Source: Candidatus Geocrenenecus huangii
GTDB lineage: Archaea > Thermoproteota > Nitrososphaeria_A > Caldarchaeales > Wolframiiraptoraceae
Length of the DNA: 37,560 bases
NCBI GenBank assembly: GCA_023254095.1
Contig: JALNLM010000005.1
Location: 1 to 37,560, forward strand
Reading direction: 5' to 3'
Positions within the stretch are counted from its first letter, which is position 1, and every line of letters starts with the position of its first letter. The position numbers and the translations under genes were made by a program. The notes under the pieces were generated by a model. That model was not told the origin of the DNA, made no database searches, and saw only the letters and a program-made list of their open reading frames with translations. Below are positions 4,469 to 24,773 of the stretch, piece by piece.

Positions 4469-5068
4469 TTAGATTAGCTTCTTTATTTTTTGAGTCCAGC
4501 TCTTGTGTTCTAAGAGTTTATGTTTATTCTCGATTGCTTGGAGTACAGCTTTTACAAATCTCCAGAACTCTTTAGGTGTAAACCGCATTTCATCTACTCC
4601 ATCTTTATGAAATAACTGAACGTCTACATATCTATACACTTGTTTTGTAATGGATCTTGAGGGTGCATACCCGTACATTCCATATCCTACGACTGGACCA
4701 CCTTCTGCTTCAAGGTCTACATAGGTCTCGGTCGAGAACTTCATATCGTCTATCTCATCCCATTTAACTATCTTCTCACTTAGTAGGAGCCCATCCTCCC
4801 GCACTTCAACCCTCGACGCCTCCCTATACTTGAGGGAAGATATCGTGAAAACCGTTAGAGAGCCGATCAACATGATGACGATACTCAGCAGTGCATTCTT
4901 AGTTCCTTCCTCAGGGTAGCCGAATATGAAAGCGGATCCCAGCATAAATGCAAGCATCCCGAGAATGATTGATGGCACTAAAGCCGAGACCATTACAATA
5001 TACAATATCATTGTTTTACGAGTTCTTAGACACTCGCTTTCCTGGAAAAAGATCCTAACCATTATCAT
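4469..5068 (-). CDS. Hypothetical membrane protein: two TM helices plus a soluble, possibly PH-like domain
   Basis: Two hydrophobic segments followed by VEVREDGLLL...IVKWDEIDDMKF, a pattern seen in bacterial PH-like domains. Start uncertain. Confidence 0.6.
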   Translation of the reverse strand: MIMVRIFFQESECLRTRKTMILYIVMVSALVPSIILGMLAFMLGSAFIFGYPEEGTKNALLSIVIMLIGSLTVFTISSLKYREASRVEVREDGLLLSEKIVKWDEIDDMKFSTETYVDLEAEGGPVVGYGMYGYAPSRSITKQVYRYVDVQLFHKDGVDEMRFTPKEFWRFVKAVLQAIENKHKLLEHKSWTQKIKKLI

Positions 5069-5299: not shown

Positions 5300-6164
5300 T
5301 TAAGGGAGAATTTTTGTAGTTCTCAGAGATGTAAAGGAGAGTGATAATGCATTTGTTGGGCAGACTTCGATACACTCAAAACACTTAATGCAGTCTGTGT
5401 CCCTGATACTGTCTTCCCCCATCTTAATGTATTTAGATGTTATTGGTATAGATGTTCTGCAGACTTCATCACATCTCCCACAGAATGTGCATAGTTTATC
5501 AGTTATCTTTAGTTTTAAGAGTGAAAGCTTGTTGAATGTTCCGTAAAGTATTCCAGTTATGCATATCCGTCTACACCAAAATCTTGGATAAACCGTAGAT
5601 ATAATAATGTCTAGAATGAACGCCAAGAGTATTACTATTATTGCATATTCTATCTTAGCAGGGAAAGCGGTAGTTGGAGAGAATATTTGACTGAGCGAGT
5701 TTATGATTACCGAGAACATGGTGATAACGTTTAGGTAGTTTATGTAAATTGGAATGTATGCAAAGATGCTCACTCCAAAGATTACGACAAACATTGGTAT
5801 ATAGAATTTTAGAGAAAAGTATAGATTCTACTGTGGCTTGAACTTCTAGATCTTCTTAGGTTCCTAAAGTATGAGTAGAAGATATCCAGTGGGCATATCC
5901 ATCCACAGAAACTCTACCTAGAACAAGATACAGGACTAGGGTGGTTAGAAAAGCTATTGTTGGAAAAGCGATTGGCTGTTTGTAGGCTAGGAGTTTCTCG
6001 ATAGCTGCTGTAGGATCCACGAACCCTATTATGTTTAATACCTTTGATGATACTAGTGATCCAACTATTATTGGGATATTATATATGATGAGTTGATGCT
6101 GCATCATGAATAGCAAGACTGTTGCGACTTGTAGTAATCTTCGCAGGAGATTGAAAGGTTTCAC
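5300..6164 (-). pseudogene. NapH/MauN-like membrane 4Fe-4S protein, split by two frameshifts
   Basis: The 5' part ends LVLGRV. Shifting frame at the homopolymer near 5909-5911 restores FCGWICPLD. A second shift at about 5810-5830 joins the part carrying RFWCRRIC, CTFCGRCDEVC and CIKCFECIEVCP. The GTG start overlaps the torD-like stop (GTGA). Confidence 0.8.
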
Positions 6165-6910
6165 TTCTTTACTTCTTCCTCAATGAATTCTTCGATCTCC
6201 ATTACTAATTCGTAATCTTCTTTTACGTAGTTGTCTGTTAAGCTCGCTAAAATTCTGTAAAAACGCTGAACACTCTCATTTTCTATCTTCCAGCATACGT
6301 TGGGTAGCCATGTTAAGAGATGATTCTCCAGGAATCTTCTCTGTCTAGTTAGCAAACGTTTTACTTCTCTGAGATCCCCATTCCTCAGAGCTTCAAGAGA
6401 CATTGTACACATCACTACCATGTATTCCAGTTCTATTCCGATATGGTCTTCTAAGACACTATTATCTTGAAGTATCATTCCATCATCAAGCATCCAATCT
6501 CTAACTTCAAGCCACATTTTGCCTTTGAGAGTTTCTTCACCTCTATTCACAGATTCATAAGGAGTTACTAGTGGTACCGGAGTACCTATGAAGAGTCTTA
6601 CATATTCAGCCCAGACCTCTGTTAGGCAATCTTTGTCTCTACTTAACTTCTCTGCTTCTTTTAAGAATTCAGCGATGAGTTCACGGATATTCTTCTCTGG
6701 ATAATTTTGAGATAAAGTTCTTAGGACTTCATTATTGAGAATGTCGTGTAGGAATTTTTCAGAAGGTTCTTCAAGAAAAAGGGTCTTAAATAGGTGGTAT
6801 ATAGTTATTCTCATTTTTAGTAATGCATTTATCGTCTCTGATGTTATTACTCCGTGAGATGGAAGATCTATCTGCCCATCATTATTCATAGCTTTATTCA
6901 ACTCATACAA
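6161..6910 (-). CDS. TorD/DmsD-family redox enzyme maturation chaperone
   Basis: Motifs EYVRLFIG, PYESV, EDHIGIELEYM and FLENHLLTW. Lies directly downstream of the molybdoenzyme gene. Confidence 0.93.
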   Translation of the reverse strand: MYELNKAMNNDGQIDLPSHGVITSETINALLKMRITIYHLFKTLFLEEPSEKFLHDILNNEVLRTLSQNYPEKNIRELIAEFLKEAEKLSRDKDCLTEVWAEYVRLFIGTPVPLVTPYESVNRGEETLKGKMWLEVRDWMLDDGMILQDNSVLEDHIGIELEYMVVMCTMSLEALRNGDLREVKRLLTRQRRFLENHLLTWLPNVCWKIENESVQRFYRILASLTDNYVKEDYELVMEIEEFIEEEVKK

Positions 6911-6943
6911 GTCATAAACATAAAAAATATAGGGAGATCTGGT

Positions 6944-9865
6944 CTATATTATCTTCCACTCTCTTCTATAGTATTCTGCTATAATCCCTTGCGCCTCTTC
7001 TAGGGTTGCTTTTCTCACTTTCACTATCATATCTGCGAAGACTGGTTGACCCATGATCGGCGACATGATGTAGTCTACTAATTCTGAATGATTTGGCGTA
7101 TAATTTCTATGGACATATGTCCCTCCAAGCCCAGGTGAGAATCTTCCTCCAGTTGCAAACCCGATCCTTATTACTCCAGGTCTAACAGTCTCGCATACGT
7201 AGGCTTTTGATAAGACTTTTCTTCCAAGCGGGTTTTCTATGATTATTAGGTCGCCCATCTCTATTCCTAATCTCTCTGCATCGGCAGAATTTATCTGGAC
7301 TGTTCCTATGCACCACAGGTCTTTTGGTATAGTTTTCTCTACGTGAATTATCTCCATTCCTCCTGGAGATGTTTCAGCCATCTTTAGTGAGAAGCTTTCA
7401 TTCATCGGCACCCATAATCCTTCAGCGGGTGTTTGTGCCAGCCACTCACACATATGAGTCCCGCTCATCGCATGATGTACCCTCGCAGAGATCAATTGGA
7501 ATGGATATTCATCTCTATACTTAACGTACTCTGGATTCGTATAGTAGTTCCAAACAGTCTCAAACCAGTAGAATGAGGTAGGCAATTCTTTCCATCCTAG
7601 TTTTCTCCAACTTGGTGGGACTACTCCGCTTTCTATTACAAGCTTGTTTATCCCTTCATACGTATAGAAGTGTAGCTCGAGCTTCTTCGTTTTCGTCTTA
7701 ATAATTCCGCCCGGCTTCCAGTCTTGCTTCTCTTCATCCCATTCTCTGTACCTATACCAGCTCATAGGCCAGAATGCTCCACCATAATGTTTTCTCAGAT
7801 ACTCAACTGTTACATACTCGCCTGTTACAGTCTTCTTTTCATCGTCTATCTTTACCCGTCCTTCTTCGAGTGATTCAGGTGTACCGATAAGCGTGTATCC
7901 CTCCGGTAGGGTAGGATAGGGTAGGGGTCTACCAACGTTAGGTCTGCCTGGAGCGACTCGGAGCATCTCATTTACGAAGTCTTCTTCCGTCTTGTATTTC
8001 TCCCAGAATTCTTCTGGCGGTATATCGCTCCTTCCAATTTCTTTCATTTCATATTCGTAGATCTTCTTAGCAAGCATGTTCATAATGTCGGTAGGCTTCT
8101 TACTCTCGAATAGTGGTTCTATTACTGGGTCTCGTAGGAACATTATCGGATGGGTTGGATATATGTCTGAGAGGCTCATCCTCTCCAGGTAGCTTGCTTC
8201 AGGTAGAATGTAGTCTGCATATAACCCGGATTCTAGTAGGATCGTATCAATGTAGACGTATAGTTCAAGTTTGTATTCTCCATCGGGTTTCTTTGCCGTG
8301 AATGCTTCAATAAACCTATATACTGGTCCAGCCGTTATCAACGTATTACCAGTTCTCAGAATATACGCAGCCAGTGGGTACTTGTGCCCTTTGAACGGCC
8401 CATACTTTAACTCTATTCCCTCTATGATCATTCTCGGCAGGTCCCCTACTACATCATCCCATGCAGCGGGCCAGTCCGCATATCTAGCATAGTGGAGTTT
8501 CTCTTGCTCTGCCTCCACCTCGACACCGTTTATAATCCTCTTTACTTTCCTTGTGTTGAACCATCTTCCCGTCGCTGTCCCTCCTTTACTCGATTTAACT
8601 ATCTCTGTATCTATTACTCCTCCGCGTGCCTCGAAGTTCCCCGTAATTATGTTTAATACACATCCGAGAATTGATGCTACATACCCATTGTAGTGATGAC
8701 CTGGCGATTGCATACCCCATATGACTGCGGCCGGCTTAGTTATACCGAAAGCATGTGCTAGGTACTCGATCTTCTCTTTCGGAAGACCTGTTCTCGCTTC
8801 AGCCCACTCCAAGGTAAAGTACTTAAAACCATTTACAGGATCTACTTTATCCCACCAACTCTTGAAGTTCTCTAAGAATTCTTCCCATCCCTCAACATAT
8901 TTAAGTACACTATAATCGATGTAGTTTCTTGTAGGATCGGTTGGATTATTATGTTCAAGGATGTATCTGAGTATAGCAGCAAACAACTCGCCATCCGTCC
9001 CTGGTCTAATCGAGAACCATTCATCGGCTAGCGCTGCCGTATTGCTGAAGCCTGGATCTACAACGAATACTTTACATCCATTTTCTCTCTTTGCTCTAAC
9101 GGTTCCAGCATTCTCCCAAACGATTCTAGTAGCTGTGAATGGATTCCAGCCAACGTATATTATTAGTTTCGCATCGTGTTGATCATACCATTTAAGACTG
9201 CCGTCAGGCATTCTTATAGGTACAGGTCTCAGAATGTCTGGCTCCCATCTCTTCCCGTTTACTATGAGCTTCGGTCCATGTCTCCTGGGAGTATCACATA
9301 TCGCTCCATGCTCTACAGCGTTTGGTGAGCCGAAAGCAAAAGTCAGCCTCCAGTACTGGTCTCTATCTGTTACATCTCCAGTATCGGTTAATAATGCCTC
9401 CGGACCATATTTCTTCTTAATCTCAACGAGTTTCCGAGCTATCTCATCTATCGCCTGCTCCCAAGAGACCCTAACGAATTTTCCTTCACCACGTTCACCT
9501 ACTCTCTTCAATGGATACTTTATTCTATATGGACTATAGACTAGCTGTAATCCAGATATGGCTTTAGCGCAGGCTGCACCTCTACTATTGTAGGTTAAAT
9601 GAGGGTTACCGTAGACTCTTACCACTCTACCATCTTTGACCCATATTTCAAGAGCGCACTCAGCTGCACACATTACACATGACGTATATTTCACTTGTAC
9701 ATCTCTCTTCTTTATTTTCTGCTTGACCGCTCTAATGTTCTCAGCCGGTACTTGAGCTAGATACATTTTCTCATAGATTGCTGGTCCTAGGGTTACACCA
9801 GCAATTACGCCTAGAGATGCCAGAGATCCTAACTTTATAAACTCTCTTCTACTTAACTTACTCAT
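6944..9865 (-). CDS. Tat-exported DMSO-reductase-family (Mo/W-bisPGD) catalytic subunit with a probable Cys ligand; substrate unknown (Psr/Phs/Ttr/Srd/Arr-like group)
   Basis: Tat motif SRREFIK; FS0 cluster CVMCAAEC...CAK; RIKYPLKRVGERGEGKF..VSWEQA; FGSPN..HGAIC active-site loop; ADYILPEASYLER; C-terminal QINSADAERLGI cofactor-binding domain; GAGGTGA RBS. Confidence 0.93.
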   Translation of the reverse strand: MSKLSRREFIKLGSLASLGVIAGVTLGPAIYEKMYLAQVPAENIRAVKQKIKKRDVQVKYTSCVMCAAECALEIWVKDGRVVRVYGNPHLTYNSRGAACAKAISGLQLVYSPYRIKYPLKRVGERGEGKFVRVSWEQAIDEIARKLVEIKKKYGPEALLTDTGDVTDRDQYWRLTFAFGSPNAVEHGAICDTPRRHGPKLIVNGKRWEPDILRPVPIRMPDGSLKWYDQHDAKLIIYVGWNPFTATRIVWENAGTVRAKRENGCKVFVVDPGFSNTAALADEWFSIRPGTDGELFAAILRYILEHNNPTDPTRNYIDYSVLKYVEGWEEFLENFKSWWDKVDPVNGFKYFTLEWAEARTGLPKEKIEYLAHAFGITKPAAVIWGMQSPGHHYNGYVASILGCVLNIITGNFEARGGVIDTEIVKSSKGGTATGRWFNTRKVKRIINGVEVEAEQEKLHYARYADWPAAWDDVVGDLPRMIIEGIELKYGPFKGHKYPLAAYILRTGNTLITAGPVYRFIEAFTAKKPDGEYKLELYVYIDTILLESGLYADYILPEASYLERMSLSDIYPTHPIMFLRDPVIEPLFESKKPTDIMNMLAKKIYEYEMKEIGRSDIPPEEFWEKYKTEEDFVNEMLRVAPGRPNVGRPLPYPTLPEGYTLIGTPESLEEGRVKIDDEKKTVTGEYVTVEYLRKHYGGAFWPMSWYRYREWDEEKQDWKPGGIIKTKTKKLELHFYTYEGINKLVIESGVVPPSWRKLGWKELPTSFYWFETVWNYYTNPEYVKYRDEYPFQLISARVHHAMSGTHMCEWLAQTPAEGLWVPMNESFSLKMAETSPGGMEIIHVEKTIPKDLWCIGTVQINSADAERLGIEMGDLIIIENPLGRKVLSKAYVCETVRPGVIRIGFATGGRFSPGLGGTYVHRNYTPNHSELVDYIMSPIMGQPVFADMIVKVRKATLEEAQGIIAEYYRREWKII

Positions 9866-9871
9866 GTACTC

Positions 9872-10888
9872 TCACCTCTTACTCTTAAACTCTGGGATGG
9901 GAAAGATAGTTAAACCAAGCACGTACAAGAATAAAGATAATGATAGTATTCCAACGGTTGCTAGGATCTCTGTCTGTGTTGGCATAAAGTTGAGGAGCGA
10001 GTAAAGTTGTGGTGAGACTTCCACGATCTGCTGTCCCCCGATTATAAGATTCCACTTGTAAGAGTAGACTCCGGCTAGAATTAGAATAGATGCAACTATC
10101 GACCCGATTGTCGAGGTCCTCACCTTTTCTGTCGCCAACATGAAGATCGGGATTAATCCTCCTAGAATGTATTGTACGCCTATGAAGCTTAATGCTAAGT
10201 AGCCAATTAACAAGATTGAAAGCCTAGTCCATGTTAATGTTTCCGCATATGCAGTTGTTGAGAGCTCGATCAGTGTAAAGACGAGATATATTGCTAGGAA
10301 GTATAGAGTAAGCTTCCCTAAAGAATTCAGAGCATCTTTTCGTAATCCATCTTTTCTCAAAGTTATGATTGCTAGTAGAGCTACTAGAGCTGCTCCAGCC
10401 GTTATCCCTGAAAGTATGGTTGTTATAGGAGTTATGGTGCTACTCCAGACTTCTCTAGCTTTCATGCTACCAATTATAAATCCGAAGTATCCGCCGAATA
10501 TTAATGATATCACTAACCCTATCGCCGAGATTCCAGTGGATGCTCTCTGAAACCATGCCGCATCCCTATATCTACTATGTATGATTATTTGAGTGGTTAA
10601 TAGAAGCACAAAGATTATCCAAATGTATCCGAATAAGGCCATAACCGAACTCGGCGTTGGATAGAGGTAGATGTTGGGAGCTCTTAATGGGGAACCGAGC
10701 TCTAAGACTAATGGTATAGGTGAAGCTAGTAGAAATCCCCATGCAGTCACCATTGAGAAAGTCGAGATACCCTCAAGATTTCTCATCTTAAAGAGTGTTG
10801 GAGCAATTGATATAATATATGAGCCTAGCACTAAGCCTGTGATGAAAGAGTAGAGTACTATCATCGGTCCCCAGATTATGTTTGTCAT
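9872..10888 (-). CDS. NrfD/PsrC-family membrane anchor (quinol-interacting)
   Basis: N-terminal WG..IVLY, then ELGSPLR and PSSVM, many TM helices and a late IGGQ motif. Lies between the 4Fe-4S and catalytic subunit genes. Confidence 0.92.
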   Translation of the reverse strand: MTNIIWGPMIVLYSFITGLVLGSYIISIAPTLFKMRNLEGISTFSMVTAWGFLLASPIPLVLELGSPLRAPNIYLYPTPSSVMALFGYIWIIFVLLLTTQIIIHSRYRDAAWFQRASTGISAIGLVISLIFGGYFGFIIGSMKAREVWSSTITPITTILSGITAGAALVALLAIITLRKDGLRKDALNSLGKLTLYFLAIYLVFTLIELSTTAYAETLTWTRLSILLIGYLALSFIGVQYILGGLIPIFMLATEKVRTSTIGSIVASILILAGVYSYKWNLIIGGQQIVEVSPQLYSLLNFMPTQTEILATVGILSLSLFLYVLGLTIFPIPEFKSKR

Positions 10889-11568
10889 ATTTCCTTCACC
10901 ACCCCAATCTTTGGATTTATAACGGTAACAGGGGCACCAGCTTTTACGGCTTCTTCATACCCTATGTAGTAGACTGACGGACTATTTCCGGTTTCAGGTT
11001 TTATGACGCTTACAGACTTCTCTGCGAGCATCTTTGAGACAATGCTTTCAGGATGGTTTATGTCTCCAAAAATTCTAGCACCACCCATACAGTTTATAAC
11101 GCATGAAGGTACTTCACCTTCTTCTATCTTGTGAAGACAATAGTCGCATTTATCAGCTGTACCCGTATATGGGTTCCTAAATCTAGCATCGTATGGACAC
11201 GCTTGTATACAGTAACCACATCCTATACATCTATCGTAATCGATTACAACTATTCCGTCATCCCTCTTATACGTTGCTCCAACAGGGCAGACAGGAACAC
11301 ATGATGGCGTCTCACAATGGTTACATAGTCTAGGCAAGAAAACTCTTCTTAAGTATGGATACTTCCCTCGCTCTATTACTTCTACCCAAGTCCTGAAGAA
11401 TTCGTATGGGGTACCGTTTTCCATCTTACAAGATACTTGGCATGCATAGCACCCTACACATCTATTCAAATCAACAACCATGACCCATTTAGGTTTCGCA
11501 GACTTTTTGTCAATGTATCTACCGACTATATGGGGTAATTCTTCTTGAAGTTTTAAATACTTGGACAT
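10885..11568 (-). CDS. 4x[4Fe-4S] electron-transfer subunit (NrfC/PsrB/TtrB family)
   Basis: Four Cys groups: CVGCYACQVSC, CNHCETPSCVPVCP, CIGCGYCIQACP and CDYC...CVINC. Confidence 0.95.
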   Translation of the reverse strand: MSKYLKLQEELPHIVGRYIDKKSAKPKWVMVVDLNRCVGCYACQVSCKMENGTPYEFFRTWVEVIERGKYPYLRRVFLPRLCNHCETPSCVPVCPVGATYKRDDGIVVIDYDRCIGCGYCIQACPYDARFRNPYTGTADKCDYCLHKIEEGEVPSCVINCMGGARIFGDINHPESIVSKMLAEKSVSVIKPETGNSPSVYYIGYEEAVKAGAPVTVINPKIGVVKEI

Positions 11569-11586
11569 ACTTCATCACTTTACATA

Positions 11587-11669
11587 TTTCATAACTTCCA
11601 GTTACGAAACTTTATTAAAACATTCTTTAAATTGACCTTTAATTGTTTTTAGGCTGTAATTAAACAATT
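11587..11669 (-). promoter_or_regulatory. Putative promoter of the reductase operon with two inverted repeats
   Basis: TTTCATAAC-N5-GTTACGAAA (11587-11609, one mismatch); TATA-like TTTTAATAAA on the minus strand (11620-11611); AATTGTTT-N13-AAACAATT (11641-11669, perfect 8-bp arms). Confidence 0.5.
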
Positions 11670-11695
11670 TTTTACTTACTTTAACACGATTAATC

Positions 11696-12316
11696 TTAAC
11701 TCTTATAACACAGTAGTTTAACTGCCTCAATCCCAAAAGCGGTAATTCTATAGCTTTTCGATTTATCCTGCGTTATTAACCCCATCTTCTTTAGTACACG
11801 TAGATGGAAACTAAGTCTTGGAGGATCGTCTACTTGGAGTATTTTGACTAATTCTGAAAATTTGAGACTACGCTTCTCAGTAAGCAGTACTAGTATTTCT
11901 CTCCGGAGTTCATGAGATAAGCATGAGAAGATATGTTCATTTAAACTCCTACTCTTAGCCTCAGCTAAGGCTCTCTTAATGGCGATTACTAAGTCTTCAA
12001 CTCTAAAGGGTTTACAGATATAATCTGATGCTCCTTTCTTTATTGCTTCTACAGCACTGGGAATACTACCATATGCCGTGATAATTATGACAACAGTGTT
12101 CGGAGATGTTCTCTTAATTGTACTTAATAAATCGATGCCATTCATACCGGTGAGCAGTAAATCGGCAACGACCACGTCAAAGTTTTCTTCTTGAAGTATC
12201 TCAAGTGCACTCCATGCATTATATGCTAACTTAACTTTAAATTCATATCTCTCGAGCAGTTCCTTCAGTGTAGAGCATATTGTTTCATCGTCATCAACTA
12301 TAAGTATCTTGGTCAA
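11696..12316 (-). CDS. Response regulator: REC domain plus ArsR-like winged helix-turn-helix
   Basis: REC motifs ILIVDDD, VVADLLLTGMNG, ITAY and KPF, followed by IFSCLSHELRREIL...LSFHLRVLKKMGLI. The TTG start at 12316 has a GAGGTG RBS, so the longer ORF-track start is unlikely. Confidence 0.9.
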   Translation of the reverse strand: MTKILIVDDDETICSTLKELLERYEFKVKLAYNAWSALEILQEENFDVVVADLLLTGMNGIDLLSTIKRTSPNTVVIIITAYGSIPSAVEAIKKGASDYICKPFRVEDLVIAIKRALAEAKSRSLNEHIFSCLSHELRREILVLLTEKRSLKFSELVKILQVDDPPRLSFHLRVLKKMGLITQDKSKSYRITAFGIEAVKLLCYKS

Positions 12317-14048
12317 AGGGGGCACCTCTCGGCAATTTGATGGTAAAAACGCTTCCTTTCCCCAATTCGCTTTCAACAATGATCGTCCCGCCATGCATTT
12401 TAACTATCTCTTGTGAAATTGTCAAGCCGAGGCCTAGACCACCTTTACCTTTATGCTTAGAGTAAAATGGTTCAAATATTTTATCGAGATCTTCTTTCGG
12501 TATGCCGTCGCCAGTATCCCTAATTGAGATAAGAGTATTCGAGTTGTCCTGCTGTACCTCTATGGTCAAGGTGCCACCGCCAGGCATTGCTTGAATAGCA
12601 TTCATTATCAAGTTATCTATCACCAATCCAATAGCTAGAGGATCTACATAAGCTTTACATAGTTTATTGTATTTTTTAACGACTTTTATGTTATACTTAT
12701 CGAATGAATATGCTTTAAGAGAATTCTCAACTATTTCAACTACGTCAATAATTCTCTTATTTATCTTTACTTCTCTTCTTCTATATCTTAATAAGTCATC
12801 GATAGCACGTTTAATTTCCATAACATTTGATACGACCCTTTCTAAGCTCTTCTTCGTTAATTCCTCCTTAGATTCTGAGAGTATCAATTCACAGCCCAGC
12901 GTCATCCTAGTTAAAAGTGTGTTGATCTTATGTATTATACCAGCTACCAGATATTGAATTATTGCGATTTTCTCATACTGTCTAATCCTTTTATAGAATT
13001 CTTCTCTAGCCTTATCACTAGTTATATCTCTAACAATGACAATTTTTCTTCTCCCTTCTTTATCGAGATCCAAAAAGAACAACTTAATGTAGACAGTTTC
13101 TCCACCTCTATCATAGGATAGCTCAGCCTCTCCTTTAGTTGACACCGAATCCAATCTTATGATCTCTGAAAGCTTTCTATTCACAATCTCAGATTTACTC
13201 AAATTGAAGATTCTTTCAGAAGCTTTATTGCAAGAATGTATCATGCCGTCCGAAGAGATTAATAATATCCCGTCCTGAATCGAGTTGACGAGCATCTTAT
13301 ATCTATTCTTTAATCGTCTCAGTCTTTCTACATAGTTTCTTGTCTTCTCCCTCTCTTCTTCAAGCTTGTCTAACATTCTGTTAAAGGCCATAGATATCAT
13401 ACCAATTTCATCCTGAGCATCTACCTCGACTCTAGATCTGTAATCACCTTTAATGATCTTCTCTATTGCATTCTCTAAGTTTTTCATGGACACCGTTAAA
13501 CTCGTTAGAGATATGAAAAAGGATACAGCCCCTATTCCTACTATTAGTGAACCCCACAAAAAGATTTTACCTATGATGTTGAACATCTTCTCTTCTATTT
13601 GTTTGCTCGTAATTCCGATGTGTATCTCTCCTCCAATACCTCTGTATACTGGGACAGAGACATCGTAGATAACACTACCAACTGCTTGGAATTTTTTTAC
13701 TGACATATCCTCATTTACAGGTGGGTTAAATCCAACTAAAGCTTTAGGAAAAGCATCTGTGAAAGTACTTGCAACTACATTTCCATCAAAGTCTACAATG
13801 TACATGTAAGCTATGTTCGGATTTCTGGCCTTGAAGTCGTTTACCATATTATTGAGAGTTATTATATTACCTTTAACTAGCAAAGACAGGACTTCTATCT
13901 GGATTCTATCTAGATACAGTGCCGTGCTCGCTACCAATTCTTCTATGAGAGATTTACTTATCTGGTTATACAGAATGTACGCATTTATTAATCCAAATAT
14001 CATTAAGTAAAGTACGAATATAAGTGTGAACTTTTTTCTAAGCTTCAT
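12294..14048 (-). CDS. Membrane sensor histidine kinase (TM, extracellular Cache-like domain, TM, HAMP, PAS, HisKA, HATPase)
   Basis: Two TM helices; HAMP DEIGMISMAFNRM; PAS-like segment; H-box IHKIN; N-box NLIMNAIQAM; G1 DTGDGI; F-box IFEPFYS; G2 GLGLGL. Confidence 0.93.
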   Translation of the reverse strand: MKLRKKFTLIFVLYLMIFGLINAYILYNQISKSLIEELVASTALYLDRIQIEVLSLLVKGNIITLNNMVNDFKARNPNIAYMYIVDFDGNVVASTFTDAFPKALVGFNPPVNEDMSVKKFQAVGSVIYDVSVPVYRGIGGEIHIGITSKQIEEKMFNIIGKIFLWGSLIVGIGAVSFFISLTSLTVSMKNLENAIEKIIKGDYRSRVEVDAQDEIGMISMAFNRMLDKLEEEREKTRNYVERLRRLKNRYKMLVNSIQDGILLISSDGMIHSCNKASERIFNLSKSEIVNRKLSEIIRLDSVSTKGEAELSYDRGGETVYIKLFFLDLDKEGRRKIVIVRDITSDKAREEFYKRIRQYEKIAIIQYLVAGIIHKINTLLTRMTLGCELILSESKEELTKKSLERVVSNVMEIKRAIDDLLRYRRREVKINKRIIDVVEIVENSLKAYSFDKYNIKVVKKYNKLCKAYVDPLAIGLVIDNLIMNAIQAMPGGGTLTIEVQQDNSNTLISIRDTGDGIPKEDLDKIFEPFYSKHKGKGGLGLGLTISQEIVKMHGGTIIVESELGKGSVFTIKLPRGAPFDQDTYS

Positions 14049-15004
14049 TTACTCTCACCTGAGAGCAGATACTTCTCTACTAGCTCATAATAGATCGCAT
14101 AATACTCTATGGTAGGCTCAGCGAATCCTCCGGGGAACTCTGTCATACTCCATAGAGTTAGAGTAGAGTGGGAGCCAAGAGGTTCAAGCTCGATCAACGC
14201 TTTCTTTACATTCTCAACCAAATTGTTGTCCACAGCTTTGTTAGCAATTATTAGGCTTCTAGGGAAAGGTTTAGAGATTGCTATTATCTTAATTAATCCT
14301 TCTCTAGCAAGTCGAAATGCAAGCAAGTCCTGCATGGCCCCAGCATCAAATCTTCCAGAGATAACTGCTTCAGCGCATTGCTGATGGGAGCCTAGGAAAG
14401 CATACTCTCTAAAGTCTTTAAGAGATACTCCGGCTTCTTCCAGCATGATTAACGGTATTAAATGTCCCTGCGTAGAATAGTATGACCCGAAGGCAAAACT
14501 CTTACCCTTTAGTTCCGCTAAAGAGGTTATGTTTAAATCAGTTCTTGTAAAGATAACTGCTCTGTAAAACATGCTCTTATTCTCATCTAAACCTACAGTC
14601 ACAGGAATGACGTTGCCGTATCTTAGGCCTGTTACAATATAACTTACAGGGCCTACTGCAGCAAATTGGGTCACATTCATTCCTATATCATTCTGGACCA
14701 GCTCGTATGTTGGTTCGTATTTCAACCTAAACTCATAACCAGTCTTATCGGAGAGATAGCTCATAAGCGGAGCATATATCTGTATTTCAGTATCGGGATC
14801 CAATCTTGGATCAAAACCAAAATAAATAACTTTTTTACTGGAAATATTCAGAGAAGGATATGTAGTCTTTTCACCAAGATTAATTACAACGATCTCGTCA
14901 CAATGATAGGGGTTAGTCAAAATTACGATCGATAATAAAGTGGCTATGAGAGCTAGATTTAATAAAATATTCAGCTTTGTTGTCTCCATACCTGTTCCGT
15001 CCAC
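14045..15004 (-). CDS. PhnD-like (phosphate/phosphite/phosphonate-type) extracellular substrate-binding protein, probably a sensory partner of the kinase
   Basis: N-terminal membrane anchor; motifs LKGKSFAFGS..STQGHLIP and GSH...EAVISGRFDAGA. Its stop overlaps the kinase ATG (ATGA). Confidence 0.88.
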   Translation of the reverse strand: MDGTGMETTKLNILLNLALIATLLSIVILTNPYHCDEIVVINLGEKTTYPSLNISSKKVIYFGFDPRLDPDTEIQIYAPLMSYLSDKTGYEFRLKYEPTYELVQNDIGMNVTQFAAVGPVSYIVTGLRYGNVIPVTVGLDENKSMFYRAVIFTRTDLNITSLAELKGKSFAFGSYYSTQGHLIPLIMLEEAGVSLKDFREYAFLGSHQQCAEAVISGRFDAGAMQDLLAFRLAREGLIKIIAISKPFPRSLIIANKAVDNNLVENVKKALIELEPLGSHSTLTLWSMTEFPGGFAEPTIEYYAIYYELVEKYLLSGESK

Positions 15005-15413: not shown

Positions 15414-16127
15414 TTAAGATCCTCTCAATATTTTCATGACTTCTTGATTGTTGAGTAGGTCGCTCGGACTTCCGTGAAAGATCGTTTCACCTCTCTCCAA
15501 CACATATAGTTTTTCAGCTATCTTTGTTGCTATTACCACATTAGATTCAGCGATTATAACTCCTATTCCTTGATTTTTTATCATTTCGATCGCATCTTTG
15601 AATCTCTCTACGACGATTGGCGCTAATCCCTCAAATGCCTCATCCAAGAGAAGATATTTCGGTAACGTTGCTAAACTTCTCGCTATAGCTACCATCTTCT
15701 TCTCTCCTCCACTCAAATAGAAGCCTTCCCTATCTAGAAAATTCTTTATCTCCGGAAATATCGTTAAAATCATGTTCATTATATCGTCAATCTTATCGAG
15801 GTTTTTAGATAGATATGCGGCTAAATAGATATTCTCCTTGGCTGTAATCCATGGAAAGACCCTCATATCTTCTGGAACGTATCCTATACCTTTCGCCACT
15901 CTTTGGTATGGTGGCAGTTTTATAATATCCAGGTCATCTACCTGAATTCTCCCTCTTGACGGTTTATAGATTCCTACGATAGATTTGAATGTGCTAGACT
16001 TGCCTGCTCCATTCCTTCCAATGATAGCTACGACCTCGCTCTTTTCGACCTCTATGGAGACCCCCCTCAAGATATCGGTATTCGATATTCTTAAGTGGAG
16101 GTCCTCCACCTTAAGCATATACACCAC
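15414..16127 (-). CDS. livF: LIV-type ABC transporter ATP-binding protein (LivF-like)
   Basis: Walker A GRNGAGKS, GIGYVPE, LSGGE and LLLDE. Confidence 0.9.
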   Translation of the reverse strand: MVYMLKVEDLHLRISNTDILRGVSIEVEKSEVVAIIGRNGAGKSSTFKSIVGIYKPSRGRIQVDDLDIIKLPPYQRVAKGIGYVPEDMRVFPWITAKENIYLAAYLSKNLDKIDDIMNMILTIFPEIKNFLDREGFYLSGGEKKMVAIARSLATLPKYLLLDEAFEGLAPIVVERFKDAIEMIKNQGIGVIIAESNVVIATKIAEKLYVLERGETIFHGSPSDLLNNQEVMKILRGS

Positions 16128-16863
16128 CTAGAAGTACTTTCTTGATTTCTTCATTTTTCCTAATCTCTTCTACTTCTCCGTCAGCGATTATTCTTCCTTG
16201 ATGCATTACTATAATCCTTACCCCATATCGGAAGACTATATCCATGTCGTGCTCGATTATTATACTGGTCACCTTAGTTTTCCTGATCACGTCTAGTATC
16301 TTCTCCATTATGTTGTCCTTATCTTTTGTAGCAACACCACTTGTCGGCTCGTCCAACATTATCAACTTGGGATTTAAAGCAAAAGAGATCGCTACATCTA
16401 CTAGCTTTCTATCACCGTAGGAAATACTCATAATATTTTCATCAGCTTCATCGCTTAATCCAAAGAGCTTCAAGATATTCTCCGTTTCCTCCAATGCATC
16501 CGTGTATTCGTCTAGTATCTTTCTGAACGCATACTGATACTTCTTCCTAGAGAGTACGGAGACCAAGATATTCTCGTAAACAGTCAGTTTATCGAACGTG
16601 TTCACTAGTTGGAAGCTTCTAACGATTCCTTTACCGACTCTCTCTAATGGGGGATAACGTGTAATATCCTCCCCCATGTACATTATTCTTCCTTCGTCAG
16701 GATAAAGGTACCCGCTGATAACGTTTATTAGCGTTGTCTTACCCGCACCATTCGGACCGATAACCATTACGACTTCTCCCTCACTGAGTGCTATGGAGAT
16801 ATTATCCAATGCTCTAACACCTCCGAAGCTTTTCTTTACTTTTAGTAATTTCAGCACTTCCAT
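16111..16863 (-). CDS. livG: LIV-type ABC transporter ATP-binding protein (LivG-like)
   Basis: Motifs KSFGG, GPNGAGKT, RSFQ, SYGD, LDEPTSG and IEHDM. Confidence 0.9.
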   Translation of the reverse strand: MEVLKLLKVKKSFGGVRALDNISIALSEGEVVMVIGPNGAGKTTLINVISGYLYPDEGRIMYMGEDITRYPPLERVGKGIVRSFQLVNTFDKLTVYENILVSVLSRKKYQYAFRKILDEYTDALEETENILKLFGLSDEADENIMSISYGDRKLVDVAISFALNPKLIMLDEPTSGVATKDKDNIMEKILDVIRKTKVTSIIIEHDMDIVFRYGVRIIVMHQGRIIADGEVEEIRKNEEIKKVLLGGVYA

Positions 16864-16865
16864 GA

Positions 16866-17864
16866 TTATCCGCCTCTTCTCCGGTGGCTGACGACGACAT
16901 CTACCAGTGTTCTTGCTAAATGAGCTATCCCTCCGGGCATTAGAATAACTATAGCGATAATGAGTATACCCATAACCATCTGCCAGTAAATGAATTTCAT
17001 TGCAAAGCTTTCTATTATATGGAAAACAAAAGAGCCTACTATTGGTCCAATAAATATTCGTGCTCCACCTAGTAGTGTTGCAAATACGACTTTCCCGGAG
17101 GTTGTCCAGTAGGCTATATCTGGAGTCACTAGTCTATGATGGTTTACAGCTAACACACCTGTAATACTAGCATATATGGCGGATATTATGAAGGCGTAAA
17201 GCCTTGCTCTGTAAATGTCGACCCCTATAAATCTAGCTCTAGTCTCATTATCTCTTATCGATTTGAGTGTAAGACCGAATGGAGAGTTAATGATCCTCCA
17301 CATTATATAGACTAGGATGAAGGTTAGACCTGTGACGAAGTAGAAGTACACGTGATGATAAGTTGCAAAGTCTAGTTTCTCCAGAGAGATCCCTAGAATC
17401 GAGAATCTTGGAATCTTTATTCCATCTGTTCCACCCGTGACCCAGTAAAACTTATAATATAAGCTCCATAATATCTGAGCTATAGCCAACATGAAGATAG
17501 CGAAAAATATTCTAGTATACCTTACTACTATCGGTCCTATTATGAGTGCAACAACAGTGGAAGATAAGATACCACCTAAAAGATGTAGCTCGATGTTATT
17601 TATTCCTAGATATTTATACATGAATCCTACTGTATATGCTCCGACCCCTAGGAATAAAGCATGTCCAAAGCTCAACAGTCCAGTGTATCCGAATAGTAGA
17701 TTGAACCCTAATAATGCGCTAATCCATGTTACTCCATGACCTAAAACTACACCCCATCCAGGTGAAAAAACGTATATTATCGGATATAGGATGGCTATTA
17801 TTGTTAGAAAAATAAAATTTGTCTTTATATCATCTCCAAAAAATCTCTTTAATCTCTCTACCAC
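16866..17864 (-). CDS. livM: LIV-type ABC transporter permease (LivM-like)
   Basis: Motifs NLLFGYTGLLSFGHALF, TGGTDG, SPFG...SIRDNE and LLGG...GPIVG. Confidence 0.9.
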   Translation of the reverse strand: MVERLKRFFGDDIKTNFIFLTIIAILYPIIYVFSPGWGVVLGHGVTWISALLGFNLLFGYTGLLSFGHALFLGVGAYTVGFMYKYLGINNIELHLLGGILSSTVVALIIGPIVVRYTRIFFAIFMLAIAQILWSLYYKFYWVTGGTDGIKIPRFSILGISLEKLDFATYHHVYFYFVTGLTFILVYIMWRIINSPFGLTLKSIRDNETRARFIGVDIYRARLYAFIISAIYASITGVLAVNHHRLVTPDIAYWTTSGKVVFATLLGGARIFIGPIVGSFVFHIIESFAMKFIYWQMVMGILIIAIVILMPGGIAHLARTLVDVVVSHRRRGG

Positions 17865-18757
17865 TTTTTTCCACCTCCAAGCCCTTCGGGTTTCAATGTA
17901 AGTATGATTATAGCGACGATGTAGATTAGTGCAAGCTCTAGCTCTGGGAACAGGATTAAGGTAATTGTTCTAAGCACGCTCACTATGAAGGCTCCTACTA
18001 GGGATCCCAGGAAACTGCCTAGGCCCCCTATAACCACGACGACGAATGCTAAGACCAAAAATTCTACAGACATTCCTAACATTGCAGATGCAGATGGGAT
18101 GAATAGTCCTCCACCTAACCCTGCGAGGAAGCTTGCAATCAGTACAGTTAACAATAAGACTTTCTTGACGTTAGCACCTAGAGCTGCCGCCATCTCGATG
18201 TCCATTGAAGAAGCTCTTAGGAGTAGCCCAGATTTGCTCTTAAATAAGAATATCCATAAGATCAAAGCAATAACCAATGCCGAGATAATTACGTAAATGT
18301 TGTAGACGGGTATTAAGTATTCACCTATAGATAAGGAGCCCGCTAATTCAAAAGGTTGAGATGCCCTAAGCGGTTCGGAGCCCCAGATCAATCTAAATAT
18401 GTCTTCGAATATCAAGAGAAGTCCATAGGTTATAAGGAGCTGTACCTCGTCTCCTTTCCCACTAATAAATAGAAATAGTGGAAATATCAGTAGAGAGGAG
18501 ACTGCTACTACGAAAGCAGCGAGGAGTGGAGGTGTTATGAGTAGTGGTATGATAGATGAACCGAATATGTTTATCATTACCCCCATGCCCGTTCCCGCAA
18601 TCGTATAACATCCTAATACGAAGAATGCTGGATGTGCGAGGTTAACGATCTTCATGACACCGTAAATGATGTTTAACCCCACCGCTATTAGGAATAACAC
18701 CGAGGCACCGAAAAAAATATTGTAGATTCTTACTAGTAGATCCATTATCTCGAGCAT
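17858..18757 (-). CDS. livH: LIV-type ABC transporter permease (LivH-like)
   Basis: Motifs AVGLNIIYGVMKIVNLAH, G..LRA...D.EMA.ALG and AFVVVVIGGLGS. Start set at ATG 18757 to avoid overlap with the binding-protein gene. Confidence 0.9.
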   Translation of the reverse strand: MLEIMDLLVRIYNIFFGASVLFLIAVGLNIIYGVMKIVNLAHPAFFVLGCYTIAGTGMGVMINIFGSSIIPLLITPPLLAAFVVAVSSLLIFPLFLFISGKGDEVQLLITYGLLLIFEDIFRLIWGSEPLRASQPFELAGSLSIGEYLIPVYNIYVIISALVIALILWIFLFKSKSGLLLRASSMDIEMAAALGANVKKVLLLTVLIASFLAGLGGGLFIPSASAMLGMSVEFLVLAFVVVVIGGLGSFLGSLVGAFIVSVLRTITLILFPELELALIYIVAIIILTLKPEGLGGGKKW

Positions 18758-18794
18758 GTCTATCGTTTCTCTAGGGTTATAGACTCTAATAAGC

Positions 18795-20201
18795 TTATAC
18801 TGGTACCACGCCTTCTCTCCATGTTTCCCTAATCCAGCTATATGCAAGAGTGCCTGCTTTAGGATCGGGGGTTCCTTCCCATCCTTCTGGAACGGTTATC
18901 TTGGATATGGGTATCACTATTGGTTTATCTAGAACGCTGAACCCGAATCGTGGATCATATTTGGAGATCCCTACTATCCCATCTTTATAACATTGATGTT
19001 TATTCGGTTTTTCGGCTCTTACGTGTATTGGTCCTGCAGGACCGTATATCGTCATACCTTCTAATGCCCTTATTATATCGTCTACTTCAGGGAATCTTCC
19101 AATCATCGTGTATGCTTTCTCAACTGCATTCTTATACAAGTATACTGCAACATATGCACCTTCAGACGGGCTATCTGGATATGTCCCCCATCTACGATAG
19201 TAGTTATTCACGAACGACTTGTTTATAGGATATTTATCCCATTCTGGGTATAGGAAGAAGTAGTTAGCATGTACTCCTGCGATATGTCCATCGGGGAAGT
19301 CCTTCACGGCTTCAGCAGGGCTCGCCGCATGAGCTATACATGAAACATACTTCATCTTCTCAAATAATCCATAACCAATTGCTTGTTTGTAGAAGTTTAC
19401 AACATCGGCGCCCCAAAGTGAAGAAGCCAGTATATCTGGCCTATTTGCGATGATCTCCGTTATGTATGGTGAGAAATCAGTAATTTTGAAAAGACCTGGA
19501 AAAGCTTCATAGACTACCTCTACCCTATCCTTACCCAAAACTTTCTCAAATGTTATCTGCATATGAGCATGCGCATTTCTACCATAAGCATAGTCTGGAT
19601 GGATATGTGCGATCCTTACTTTATCCTTCTCTGTTAGATTAAGAAGTTTGATGGCTCCTATTGCTGCTGCAACCCCATCTGCTGATTGAATATTTGTGAT
19701 TCTAAAGCAGAATCTTGGGTCTGGGACGACTGACTCAAACAAGAAGTCTGTGCATCCATCTACAAAGAACGTTAGAGTTTGAAGTTCTTCTGCTACCGGG
19801 CCTACTGCCGGAGTATTCGAAGATGATATTAACCCTACATAGAAATCTATCTTCTCATCTAGTACAAGAGTTCTATATTCTCTAACTGTTTCTTCAGGAG
19901 ACGTTTCTGATTTCACAACATACTCTATCTTTCTCCCCAGAATACCCCCACGTTCATTTATTTCTTCAATGGCTAGTATGGCTCCCTGCATCATCGGTTT
20001 ACCCCATAGAGCTCCCCCACCAGTAAGATATGCTTGAATACCTGCCTTAATGGGAGTTGTGGGTATCTCTTCTCTAACTGGCGGCGGTGGAGGAGCTAAA
20101 CCTCTATAAATCTCTGTTCCAGCTACTCCTGCAATACCTCCTACTACGAGCCCACTTACTAATCCTTTCAGAAAATCTCTTCTTCCAGTTTTTTTACTCA
20201 T
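18795..20201 (-). CDS. LIV/amide-family ABC substrate-binding protein with a Tat signal
   Basis: GRRDFLKG Tat motif followed by a hydrophobic helix and Pro-rich linker; EEINERGGILGRKIE; PDYAYG. Confidence 0.9.
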   Translation of the reverse strand: MSKKTGRRDFLKGLVSGLVVGGIAGVAGTEIYRGLAPPPPPVREEIPTTPIKAGIQAYLTGGGALWGKPMMQGAILAIEEINERGGILGRKIEYVVKSETSPEETVREYRTLVLDEKIDFYVGLISSSNTPAVGPVAEELQTLTFFVDGCTDFLFESVVPDPRFCFRITNIQSADGVAAAIGAIKLLNLTEKDKVRIAHIHPDYAYGRNAHAHMQITFEKVLGKDRVEVVYEAFPGLFKITDFSPYITEIIANRPDILASSLWGADVVNFYKQAIGYGLFEKMKYVSCIAHAASPAEAVKDFPDGHIAGVHANYFFLYPEWDKYPINKSFVNNYYRRWGTYPDSPSEGAYVAVYLYKNAVEKAYTMIGRFPEVDDIIRALEGMTIYGPAGPIHVRAEKPNKHQCYKDGIVGISKYDPRFGFSVLDKPIVIPISKITVPEGWEGTPDPKAGTLAYSWIRETWREGVVPV

Positions 20202-21937: not shown

Positions 21938-22019
21938 CGTATACTTTTTACTTCAAAATCTTTATTTTTTATTTGTTTTTATTCATGTAGGGCTTATTAG
22001 GAAAAAAGGTGAGTAGTAG

Positions 22020-24016: not shown

Positions 24017-24022
24017 TTTGGA

Positions 24023-24769
24023 ATGACTAAAGACCATATTCTTCGTGTCTCAAATCTATATGCAGGTTACGGAAAAAACGTAATACTACATGACGTATCC
24101 GTCCTATTATCAAGAGACACTCTTACATTAATTGTGGGGCCAAACGGAAGTGGAAAAAGTACTCTTGCAAAAGCGATCTTCAATTTAGCATCTGTTTTCT
24201 CTGGAGAGATCATCTTTAAGGATATTGATGTGACAAAGATGATGGCTGAGGAAAAGACTATGTTAGGCATGCAGATGATCCCCCAGACCTCAAATGTATT
24301 CGAGAATCTTACTGTAAGAGAAAACTTAGAGATATCCTTCTTTAATACTAAGAAAGCTTACAAAAATAAGAAAACTTTTAGGGATATGTTAGAATACGTT
24401 CTTCAAATATTTCCAAATTTGAAAAATAGAGAGTATGAAAAGGTAAAACTATTAAGCGGAGGAGAAAGACAAATGGTGGCATTGGCTAGAGCTCTTATAA
24501 CAGAGCCTGAATTGATAATTTTCGATGAGCCTACTGCGATGCTCTCTCCAGCTTTATCCAACTTCATACTAAACAAGATTAGAGAAATAAATCAATCAGG
24601 TGTTGCGGTTATGCTTATCGAGCAAAATGTTAAAGCTGCAATAAATATTGCAGATTATTTGTACGTGCTTCTGTCTGGAAGAAAAGTCTTAGAGGGGCCA
24701 TCAGACAAATTTACTAAAGACTTCAAATTATTGGAGGATGCATTTTTTGGAAGAGTGAGAGAAGCTTAA
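24023..24769 (+). CDS. livF: LIV-type ABC transporter ATP-binding protein (LivF-like)
   Basis: Motifs AGYG, GPNGSGKST, LSGGERQM, DEPTAMLSP and IEQN. Confidence 0.9.
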   Translation: MTKDHILRVSNLYAGYGKNVILHDVSVLLSRDTLTLIVGPNGSGKSTLAKAIFNLASVFSGEIIFKDIDVTKMMAEEKTMLGMQMIPQTSNVFENLTVRENLEISFFNTKKAYKNKKTFRDMLEYVLQIFPNLKNREYEKVKLLSGGERQMVALARALITEPELIIFDEPTAMLSPALSNFILNKIREINQSGVAVMLIEQNVKAAINIADYLYVLLSGRKVLEGPSDKFTKDFKLLEDAFFGRVREA

Positions 24770-24773
24770 TATA

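Follow-up and report, generated by a model that had tools for sequence, protein, structure and literature searches.

A putative metalloid respiration module with its own two-component system in the archaeon Candidatus Geocrenenecus huangii

The question raised by the DNA analyzed here, a stretch of 37,560 nucleotides (nt) from contig JALNLM010000005.1 of Candidatus Geocrenenecus huangii (hereafter, the window), is what compound is sensed and respired by the products of a gene cluster at its positions 5300-15004, and how such a cluster came to reside in an archaeon. The cluster joins the genes of a three-component sensory system, comprising a binding protein (X), a membrane histidine kinase (S) and a response regulator (R), to those of a reductase with a predicted molybdenum or tungsten bis-pyranopterin guanine dinucleotide cofactor (Mo/W-bisPGD), namely an iron-sulfur subunit (B), a membrane anchor (C), a catalytic subunit (A) and a chaperone (D), with a NapH-like gene (H) at the end. 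The answer that we consider probable is that the cluster represents the archaeal version of a widespread, laterally shared respiratory module of the composition X-S-R plus B-(C)-A-D, most probably of the Anr type. This module is most probably the one that became known recently, and only in bacteria, as what we take to be the antimonate respiration operon. Its features in the window are as follows (aa, amino acids; ORF, open reading frame).

15004-14045, minus strand: X, substrate-binding protein of the PhnD/PtxB family, 319 aa (PF12974, E 4.5e-48, 164 bits)
14048-12294, minus strand: S, membrane histidine kinase, 584 aa, with a weak Cache-like domain, HAMP, PAS, HisKA and HATPase
12394-11696, minus strand: R, response regulator with an N-terminal REC domain (107.8 bits) and a C-terminal ArsR-type winged helix-turn-helix (wHTH; HTH_5 6e-10, DUF7347 2e-9)
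11641-11669, strand-neutral: candidate operator, a perfect 8-bp inverted repeat AATTGTTT-N13-AAACAATT, from a motif search of the window
11568-10885, minus strand: B, four-cluster 4Fe-4S electron-transfer subunit, 227 aa (Fer4_11; top NCBIfam model TtrB)
10888-9872, minus strand: C, integral membrane anchor of NrfD/PsrC type, 338 aa (PF03916, 97 bits)
9865-6944, minus strand: A, Mo/W-bisPGD catalytic subunit, 973 aa (Molybdopterin, Fe4S4 and Molydop_binding domains; twin-arginine motif SRREFIK)
6910-6161, minus strand: D, chaperone of the TorD/NarJ family (PF02613, Nitrate_red_del, 83.5 bits; TorD model 85.7 bits)
6164-5300, minus strand: H, pseudogene of a NapH/MauN-type membrane ferredoxin (ORFs 6164-5856 and 5794-5300; NapH models)

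The first-pass annotation of this DNA had described a set of eight co-oriented, tightly spaced genes, and every gene was indeed found where it had been placed, on the minus strand; X, S, R, B, C, A and D are intact, and the one correction concerns the NapH-like gene, which is frameshifted into two ORFs. Adjacent genes overlap by 4 nt at the X/S, B/C and D/H junctions and are separated by 6 nt between C and A and by 33 nt between A and D, and the 127-nt interval between R and B is the sole real gap in the cluster. The G+C content of the cluster is similar to that of the remainder of the window.

This arrangement is far beyond chance, because the array recurs gene for gene in many genomes. In an alignment-based search of one genome per species, with flanks of 10 kb, we found 80 loci encoding relatives of X, including 41 with a gene of the A family, 28 that were too short to judge, and 11 without A despite at least 8 kb on both sides (i.e., A is present at 41 of the 52 judgeable loci). 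The X-S-R genes stand beside B-A-D in Nitrospirota, Thermodesulfobacteriota, Chloroflexota and Bacillota, with A 54-60% identical to that of the window in bacteria and 78-96% in archaea, and the synteny of the triad with this reductase clade is thus conserved in archaea and in four bacterial phyla. In the tree of X, all 41 A-linked loci fall into three clades, one archaeal, one composed mainly of Nitrospirota and Thermodesulfobacteriota, and one of Bacillota/Chloroflexota, with none of the 11 A-less loci inside them; ten of the latter form a clade of their own, mainly of Pseudomonadota, and the remaining one is a metagenome-assembled genome (MAG) of Methanosarcinales. A reverse search, among metagenome contigs with A, revealed X at 12 of 28 A-family loci, most of the others being short contigs, and in at least one locus (L121) A is present without X over 10 kb downstream and 4.6 kb upstream. 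A occurs without the sensor at times, while X of this subfamily is essentially always found with A. In Methanosarcinales MAGs (L031, 9821-17464, and L048), a close relative of X (39-47% identical) is followed by an 878-aa kinase of HAMP-PAS-GAF-HisKA_2 architecture and by further kinases, with no reductase within 8 kb.

Among archaea, the full array is present in four of the eight genomes of the genus and in loci L027, L106 and L107, while the X-S-R triad is absent from the other 68 of the 76 genomes of the class; three high-quality genomes of the genus are without X, A and REC. Further archaeal copies are located in independently assembled MAGs or metagenome contigs (L025-L028 and L106-L108), and a near-identical locus, L024, belongs to Candidatus Geocrenenecus dongiae (Archaea, Nitrososphaerota, Wolframiiraptoraceae). 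The metagenome runs that contain the stretch of the window are hot-spring metagenomes. The suspicion that the contig could prove bacterial has thus been dispelled: it is archaeal, and the array recurs in six independent loci from archaeal MAGs or metagenomes.

The part of X is in sensing and not in transport. It is the only true PF12974 protein of the genome, which is 96% complete and in which a search for PhnE gave no match above the cut-off (top score 46 bits vs. 216.7); X itself scores 92.7 bits against the PhnD equivalog TIGR03431, below its cut-off of 261.1. The ABC (ATP-binding cassette) genes upstream of X (15414-20201) are of the Liv/urea type with a binding protein of their own, and across the 80 X loci no ABC ATPase gene lies within 1 kb of X, except for a Liv remnant in L024. 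In contrast, true PhnD transporter proteins of related archaea of another genus, which are 26-29% identical to X, adjoin an ABC ATPase. The X subfamily is sharply bounded, with 57 relatives of 37-71% identity and the next ones falling to 30%. The idea of a binding protein without a permease or ATPase of its own is therefore upheld, as the genome lacks a detectable PhnE and the neighboring ABC set has its own binding protein; nor does X group with transport PhnD, being a member of a separate subfamily without cognate PhnC/PhnE that misses the PhnD equivalog.

The position of an orphan PF12974 protein directly beside a membrane histidine kinase and a response regulator is that known from AioXSR-like systems. 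Structural database matches of X include PhnD (5jvb, 3.6e-18), ArrX (6x6b, 3.8e-13) and AioX (6esv, 2.6e-6), the solved binding proteins used for comparison being AioX 6esv/6esk and ArrX 6x6b. The likeness to AioXSR, ArxXSR and ArrX lies in the combination of an orphan protein of PhnD/PtxB fold with a membrane kinase and a regulator that control a Mo-bisPGD metalloid enzyme. However, X forms its own subfamily, to which the ArrX-like proteins of arr-like clusters are an outgroup (branch 1.27), and the enzyme predicted to be controlled is neither Aio, Arx nor Arr. The kinase gene begins at the stop of X in 38 of the 41 A-linked loci, with a 4-nt overlap in 22 of those 38. X has an N-terminal hydrophobic anchor (residues 11-29), and its true start is likely the ATG at 14989; a TTTTTAATTATA box about 22 nt 5' of this ATG suggests that the X-S-R transcript is leaderless.

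In the kinase S, a first transmembrane helix (residues 3-21) is followed by an extracytoplasmic sensor domain of about 145 residues (~22-167), a second helix (168-186), and the HAMP, PAS, HisKA and HATPase domains. Homology of the sensor domain and HAMP extends to the modules of all lineages, archaeal as well as bacterial; residues Y81, T95, F96, G99, P101, H143 and G145 and the motifs DIEY.F, AHTF..GFP and ELH.G are conserved. In the regulator R, the REC domain begins only at residue 30, because of which the true start of R is probably near 12316-12325. The sequences display the elements of a classical two-component system, i.e., HisKA, HATPase_c and the H-box histidine His373 in S, and a REC domain in R with all of the acidic D34/D35, the acceptor D78, T106 and K128.

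While the input part is common to all these modules, the transmitter and the regulator differ between lineages. Among 38 loci, three pairings were found, and in the remaining 3 the regulator was missed by the ORF window used:

Nitrospirota, Thermodesulfobacteriota and two unlabelled bacteria, 19 of 38 loci: kinase HAMP-HisKA, regulator REC-sigma54 AAA+-Fis
Chloroflexota and Bacillota, 12 of 38 loci: kinase HAMP-(PAS)-(GAF)-HisKA_3, regulator REC-GerE
Archaea, 4 of 38 loci, plus the window: kinase HAMP-PAS-HisKA, regulator REC-wHTH

HisKA_3 transmitters go with GerE outputs and HisKA with the other output types, with the sensor and HAMP in common, and the REC-wHTH type of R is unlike that of all 31 typed bacterial modules. 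The transmitter/regulator pair has been swapped lineage by lineage with the sensor input kept. Elsewhere, REC-wHTH proteins are represented by about 16 full-length relatives among the best 150 cluster representatives; full-length relatives with the same architecture are 38-48% identical to R, and those with a name are proteins of Ca. Pyrohabitans (Hydrothermarchaeota) and of a Photobacterium. In a tree of REC domains only, the archaeal regulators group loosely with these relatives (57-89% support) and apart from the sigma-54-type ones, and this tree is too weakly supported to separate a domain swap from the replacement of a whole gene.

The cluster encodes the only two-component system of its genome, as the single REC and the single HisKA domain found there are both its products. 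Among the 76 genomes of the class, REC was found in five, four of which are carriers of the module with one receiver each. The fifth (G017) has two adjacent REC matches on one contig (G017:C71:5257-5979) that are unlinked to the module. According to the accessible part of the survey by Galperin et al. (2018, PMC5847659), finished crenarchaeal genomes encode no two-component proteins, DNA-binding response regulators are rare in archaea, and archaeal two-component systems are of bacterial origin; among the main classes of archaeal regulators listed in that part of the text, a REC domain followed by an ArsR-type wHTH does not appear. Like Bat, LtrR (HTH-REC) and FilR1 (wHTH-DUF1724-REC), which are treated there, R is an archaeal REC protein fused to an HTH and paired with a histidine kinase. 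It differs from them in having an N-terminal REC followed by an ArsR-type wHTH, in its partner, a membrane-bound kinase that has a sensor domain outside the cytoplasm and is joined by a binding protein, and in its host lineage, which is otherwise without a two-component system.

Given the patchy distribution, the sole two-component system and the background provided by Galperin et al. (2018), lateral acquisition of the whole module is the simplest reading. The proposal of a self-contained, horizontally acquired module has therefore held up, in that the module is confined to four of the eight genomes of the genus and is the source of the sole kinase and receiver in a lineage otherwise lacking two-component systems. 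The transfer may have proceeded from bacteria to archaea. The flanks of the cluster were compared across the genus and showed no synteny, hence no empty site could be defined.

The catalytic subunit A carries FS0 cysteines C63/C66/C70/C99 and a predicted metal ligand, Cys189, within HGAICDTPRRHGPK; in an alignment with PsrA (2vpw) and ArrA (6cz7), this cysteine occupies the column of their Mo-ligand Cys, and the Cys-ligand segment is invariant in archaeal and bacterial alignments. The metal may be Mo or W, the archaea of this family being tungsten-dependent. PsrA and ArrA are also the best solved relatives of A, the match to PsrA spanning residues 45-417. None of the NCBIfam equivalogs was reached by A, which scored 230.3 bits against the PhsA/PsrA model NF012032 (cut-off 694, with only model positions 3-527 of 759 matched), 149.3 bits against the ArrA model NF041714 (cut-off 1600) and 99.1 bits against the TtrA model NF011567 (cut-off 1750). 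The search for the A family gave 2043 matches at E <= 1e-20; the 120 that were listed, which are the best of the 2043, are all at least 54% identical. The family is monophyletic (100% SH-aLRT, a clade of 55 rows) and separated by a long branch from Ttr-, Psr- and Arr-like outgroups taken from the same loci. Across species of the genus, A is 96% or 79-82% identical; this, with the catalytic motifs invariant, indicates that A is probably under purifying selection. In the genome of the window, a short stretch at a contig end (G000:C3:147-356) is 53% identical to residues 108-165 of A and could belong to the margin of another Mo-bisPGD gene that the assembly has truncated.

B, which is without a signal peptide of its own, scores 249.7 bits against the TtrB equivalog NF011569, below the cut-off of 416, and is 73-96% identical to its archaeal relatives, 51-61% to those of Bacillota-type loci and of an archaeon of another genus of the same order (G020), and 37-47% to those found elsewhere. 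C has about 8-9 hydrophobic helices by hydropathy, and the B-C-A-D order with an NrfD protein is also that of Bacillota loci L038 and L047. In nearly all of the related loci, a gene of D follows that of A, and the genome also encodes TatC. A single metatranscriptome provided only three short contigs, which map on D/A, A and B. With the systems TtrBCA of Salmonella, SrdBCA of Bacillus selenatarsenatis and PsrABC/PhsABC, the cluster shares the combination of a Cys-ligated Mo-bisPGD subunit exported by the twin-arginine translocation (Tat) pathway, a four-cluster iron-sulfur subunit and an NrfD anchor and, in the case of ttr and srd, also the B-C-A gene order; however, the Ttr-like and Psr-like paralogues branch far from A. 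TtrSR reportedly functions without a binding protein. In G020 (L138, G020:C1:286000-305900, 7763-14354), genes B-C-A-D, with an A that represents a second subclade and is 61-62% identical to that of the window, are accompanied by genes of Mrp/Nuo-type antiporter subunits upstream and by no binding protein, kinase or regulator.

What the substrate of such an enzyme may be is suggested by the named members of the A family and by the neighbors of its genes. Among the former are proteins of Desulfuribacillus stibiiarsenatis (58% identical), Desulfitobacterium hafniense and Moorella. AnrA is said to have been proposed, by Abin and Hollibaugh in 2019, as a putative respiratory antimonate reductase in D. 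stibiiarsenatis, and in Geobacter sp. SVR it was reportedly shown at the protein level, by Kambara et al. in 2024, together with the operon anrXSRBAD. We assume that the bacterial X-S-R-B-A-D loci correspond to this operon. The likeness to it comprises a PhnD-like X, a kinase S, a regulator R and an iron-sulfur subunit B encoded before A, which is followed by a TorD-like D. The archaeal cluster differs from this presumed operon in that its R has an ArsR-type wHTH and not sigma-54 AAA+/Fis, its S has an extra PAS domain, an NrfD gene stands between B and A (as it also does in Bacillota), a NapH-like gene stands at the end, and the host is an archaeon. The order in the window is thus X-S-R-B-C-A-D-(H) as against X-S-R-B-A-D in bacterial relatives, with B before A in both, unlike in arrAB. 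That the AnrA enzymes of D. stibiiarsenatis and Geobacter sp. SVR exist is borne out by citing papers, and the two genome announcements of Geobacter sp. SVR, one of them covered by a term search, name no reductase genes. A term search of Buessecker 2022 and Hua 2018 found no mention of the cluster, and among the titles listed in a literature search on antimonate respiration by archaea, none was relevant.

A gene of arsenite/antimonite efflux protein ACR3 lies between R and B in L045 (301 bits vs. a cut-off of 282.8). Genes of the ACR3 family are present in seven bacterial loci, and in the archaeon G020 one such gene is convergent and directly follows D. In the Nitrospirota loci L033 and L045, the module adjoins an arr-like cluster (1051-1160 bits with the ArrA model) that is distinct from it and equipped with another set of binding protein, kinase and regulator, because of which the enzyme of the module appears to act on something other than arsenate. 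Such a second metalloid module beside the Anr-like one (L033, 236-9170; L045, 31-5821; L034, 2213-5753) comprises a 563-573-aa ORF with two PhnD-like matches, a kinase, a regulator, an ArrA-like enzyme, B and D, and these paired modules look like an arsenic and antimony respiration island. We regard antimonate as the most likely substrate and arsenate or some other oxyanion as its chief competitor, and sulfur or selenium compounds are less likely than those of antimony or arsenic in view of the ACR3 and arr neighbors. The enzyme had initially been described as one of unassigned substrate, which is not supported, since A belongs to a large family whose bacterial form matches the anrXSRBAD order that is reported; of the sulfur, selenium, arsenic or antimony oxyanions then considered, the last two are favored by the same neighbors and the first two have become less likely. 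Similarly, the uniqueness implied for the system is not borne out, the A family with its 2043 matches being large and the gene order widespread in bacteria. The possibility that this is an already characterized ortholog set applies in part, that is, to the bacterial form (by way of the operon presumed above) and not to the archaeal variant. It is its archaeal form that is novel, with the ArsR-type wHTH output, the NrfD anchor and NapH-like gene, the status of sole two-component system of its genome and the archaeal host.

The 127-nt gap between R and B contains the inverted repeat at 11641-11669 that is a weak candidate for an operator of R. The pattern AATTGTTT-N13-AAACAATT has one match in the window and none in 100 shuffles, and it is kept in the relative with 92-96% identity. 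A TATA-like TTTAAA 5' of B starts 10 nt downstream of the repeat on the minus strand, inside the gap.

Considering these data together, the following course of events can be proposed. The anchored X would capture a metalloid oxyanion from outside the cell, most likely one of antimony and, as the second possibility, one of arsenic, and the liganded X would dock on the extracytoplasmic domain of S. The signal would pass through HAMP and PAS to His373, from which the phosphoryl group would be transferred to Asp78 of R; the docking and the phosphotransfer are proposed because of the domain content and the translational coupling of X and S. Phosphorylated R may then bind through its ArsR-type wHTH near the TATA box in the gap between R and B and turn on B-C-A-D; that it acts through the archaeal TBP/TFB is something that we purely infer. 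D may hold the twin-arginine signal of A during the insertion of bis-PGD and FS0, and A, with B riding along, would be exported by Tat. The A-B pair would dock on the NrfD subunit C, a putative quinol oxidizer, and electrons would flow from C through the four 4Fe-4S clusters of B to FS0 and further to the Mo/W center (Cys189) and the oxyanion outside the cell. The ligand, substrate, phosphotransfer and DNA target are thus all those that we infer. Taken as a whole, the proposal that Geocrenenecus-type archaea respire antimonate or a related metalloid oxyanion by means of a laterally shared module, with the input kept and the output swapped to a wHTH acting directly on a TBP/TFB promoter, is a tentative one.

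The NapH-like gene H is a real pseudogene and not an assembly error, because the identical broken allele is present, at a coverage of about 200x, in an independent hot-spring metagenome run (X4). As compared with the intact 312-aa ORF of the relative with 92-96% identity, which carries the motif GRVFCGWICP, H is broken by two 1-nt deletions, at ~5908 and ~5823. The first of them removed one T of a T-run inside the first CX3CP motif, and the second deletion took away one more base at a distance of about 85 nt. On the two ORFs, the matches to NapH models span positions 2-78 and 151-253, and the window does not encode what is expected for NapH/MauN, one continuous chain in which two CX3CP motifs are combined with two 4Fe-4S motifs at the C terminus. 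In another run (X8), the base at 5908 is restored, but a 43-nt deletion is present at 5462-5504. The different lesions in different strains suggest that H is undergoing loss in the population, with the rest of the operon intact.

Several observations weigh against the favored interpretation. The module may be impaired in this strain, because H is broken and the genome contains only fragments of ACR3; its gene of this family consists of two fragments near a contig end (G000:C16:437-1038; 97 and 23 bits), which represent either a broken gene or an assembly edge. The metatranscriptome contigs could be DNA carry-over and not evidence of transcription. The inverted repeat is conserved only in the closest relative and is unrecognizable in three more distant archaeal loci. 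That the A-family protein of D. stibiiarsenatis is the published AnrA is our assumption, and no match named Geobacter sp. SVR appeared among the 120 listed of 2043 or among the 120 listed of 295 in a profile search, a result that is uninformative and not negative. The archaeal A is just 54-60% identical to the bacterial one, so its substrate may differ. Finally, the deep split of the A tree into archaeal, Chloroflexota and other bacterial clades is unresolved and the trees do not root the direction of transfer, while an all-archaeal A clade including the G020 type is not rejected (p-AU 0.098 in a reduced approximately unbiased test with LG+G4).

Among other explanations, the one that deserves most attention retains the architecture and the regulation and replaces antimonate with another substrate, be it arsenate reduced independently of Arr, or selenate, tetrathionate or thiosulfate. 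We regard it as rather unlikely, though clearly ahead of the others discussed below. The top curated models (PhsA for A with 230 bits and TtrB for B with 250 bits) would speak for it but score far under their cut-offs, as all such models do, and while PsrA and ArrA are the closest solved relatives of A and X matches ArrX (3.8e-13), the Ttr-, Psr- and Arr-like paralogues of the same loci lie on long separate branches. The B-C-A order recalls srdBCA and ttrBCA, whereas the ACR3 genes nearby suggest that the products are As(III)/Sb(III), as opposed to sulfur or selenium species. A second, Arr-independent arsenate reductase would not be without precedent, as one was proposed for Pyrobaculum, and Wells et al. 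(2020) cite a case of arsenate being reduced in archaea by an enzyme other than Arr; however, a second arsenate enzyme would be redundant in L033 and L045, which already have an arr-like cluster.

It could also be supposed that the cluster was acquired and is now a decaying relic that no longer functions. This would agree with the two frame-breaking deletions of H, seen at about 200x in an independent run, with the 43-nt deletion in a second strain, with an in-frame TGA in the neighboring 199-aa gene of the closest relative and with the genome having ACR3 fragments only. Nevertheless, the ORFs of X, S, R, B, C, A and D are without exception intact, A bears marks of purifying selection with catalytic motifs invariant across the genus, many bacterial modules have no NapH-like gene at all, and, as a weak argument, small RNA contigs map on B, A and D, which together make a relic improbable. 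Even less credible, and very improbable, is that the contig is a misbinned bacterial fragment or that X serves as the binding protein of a transporter, e.g., of the neighboring ABC system. Outside the archaea, each gene has its nearest relatives in bacteria, and an ABC transporter is encoded 410 nt upstream of X. Against misbinning stand the independent archaeal MAGs and contigs with the same array, in which A and X form clades of their own, the G+C content like that of the window, and the REC-wHTH regulator unlike those of the 31 typed bacterial modules. A role in transport is opposed by the Liv/urea type of the neighboring ABC system, which has its own binding protein, and by the location of true PhnD genes of related archaea, which adjoin an ABC ATPase gene while X does not. 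The cluster as an archaeal form of the Anr-type module thus remains the interpretation that we prefer.

Should this interpretation be true, the cluster would encode the first archaeal antimonate respiration system. If functional, it would extend metalloid respiration, probably that of antimony, to thermophilic archaea, with a bearing on arsenic and antimony cycling in hot springs. Its regulatory part would be a natural, single-copy and cross-talk-free two-component switch in a lineage without another, and a clean system for studies on the control of archaeal transcription by a response regulator, with one kinase, one regulator, one target operon and no interfering two-component proteins. The module also offers a natural experiment in sensor modularity after lateral transfer, in which the same input is wired to a sigma-54, LuxR-type or ArsR-type output depending on the host phylum, i.e., one sensor would have been re-plugged into three different transcription machineries.

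The surroundings of the cluster include two full sets of Liv/urea-type ABC transporter genes (15414-20201 and 20663-25544), which lie back to back, one on each strand. Beside X of the closest relative, no more than a 31-aa remnant of one such ATPase gene persists, and the intact copy is on a separate contig. Two ORFs farther away, of 1348 aa (31941-35987) and 593 aa (26906-28687), are without an NCBIfam match at E <= 1e-15. As a control of vertical inheritance, the 593-aa gene was tried and was patchy too, being found in 6 of the 76 genomes of the class at E <= 1e-20, because of which the part of the contig with these two ORFs seems to be a variable region. On the 3' side of the cluster there is a gene of a 199-aa membrane protein (4469-5068), the ortholog of which in the closest relative (G049:C28:27866-28426) contains the in-frame TGA mentioned above.

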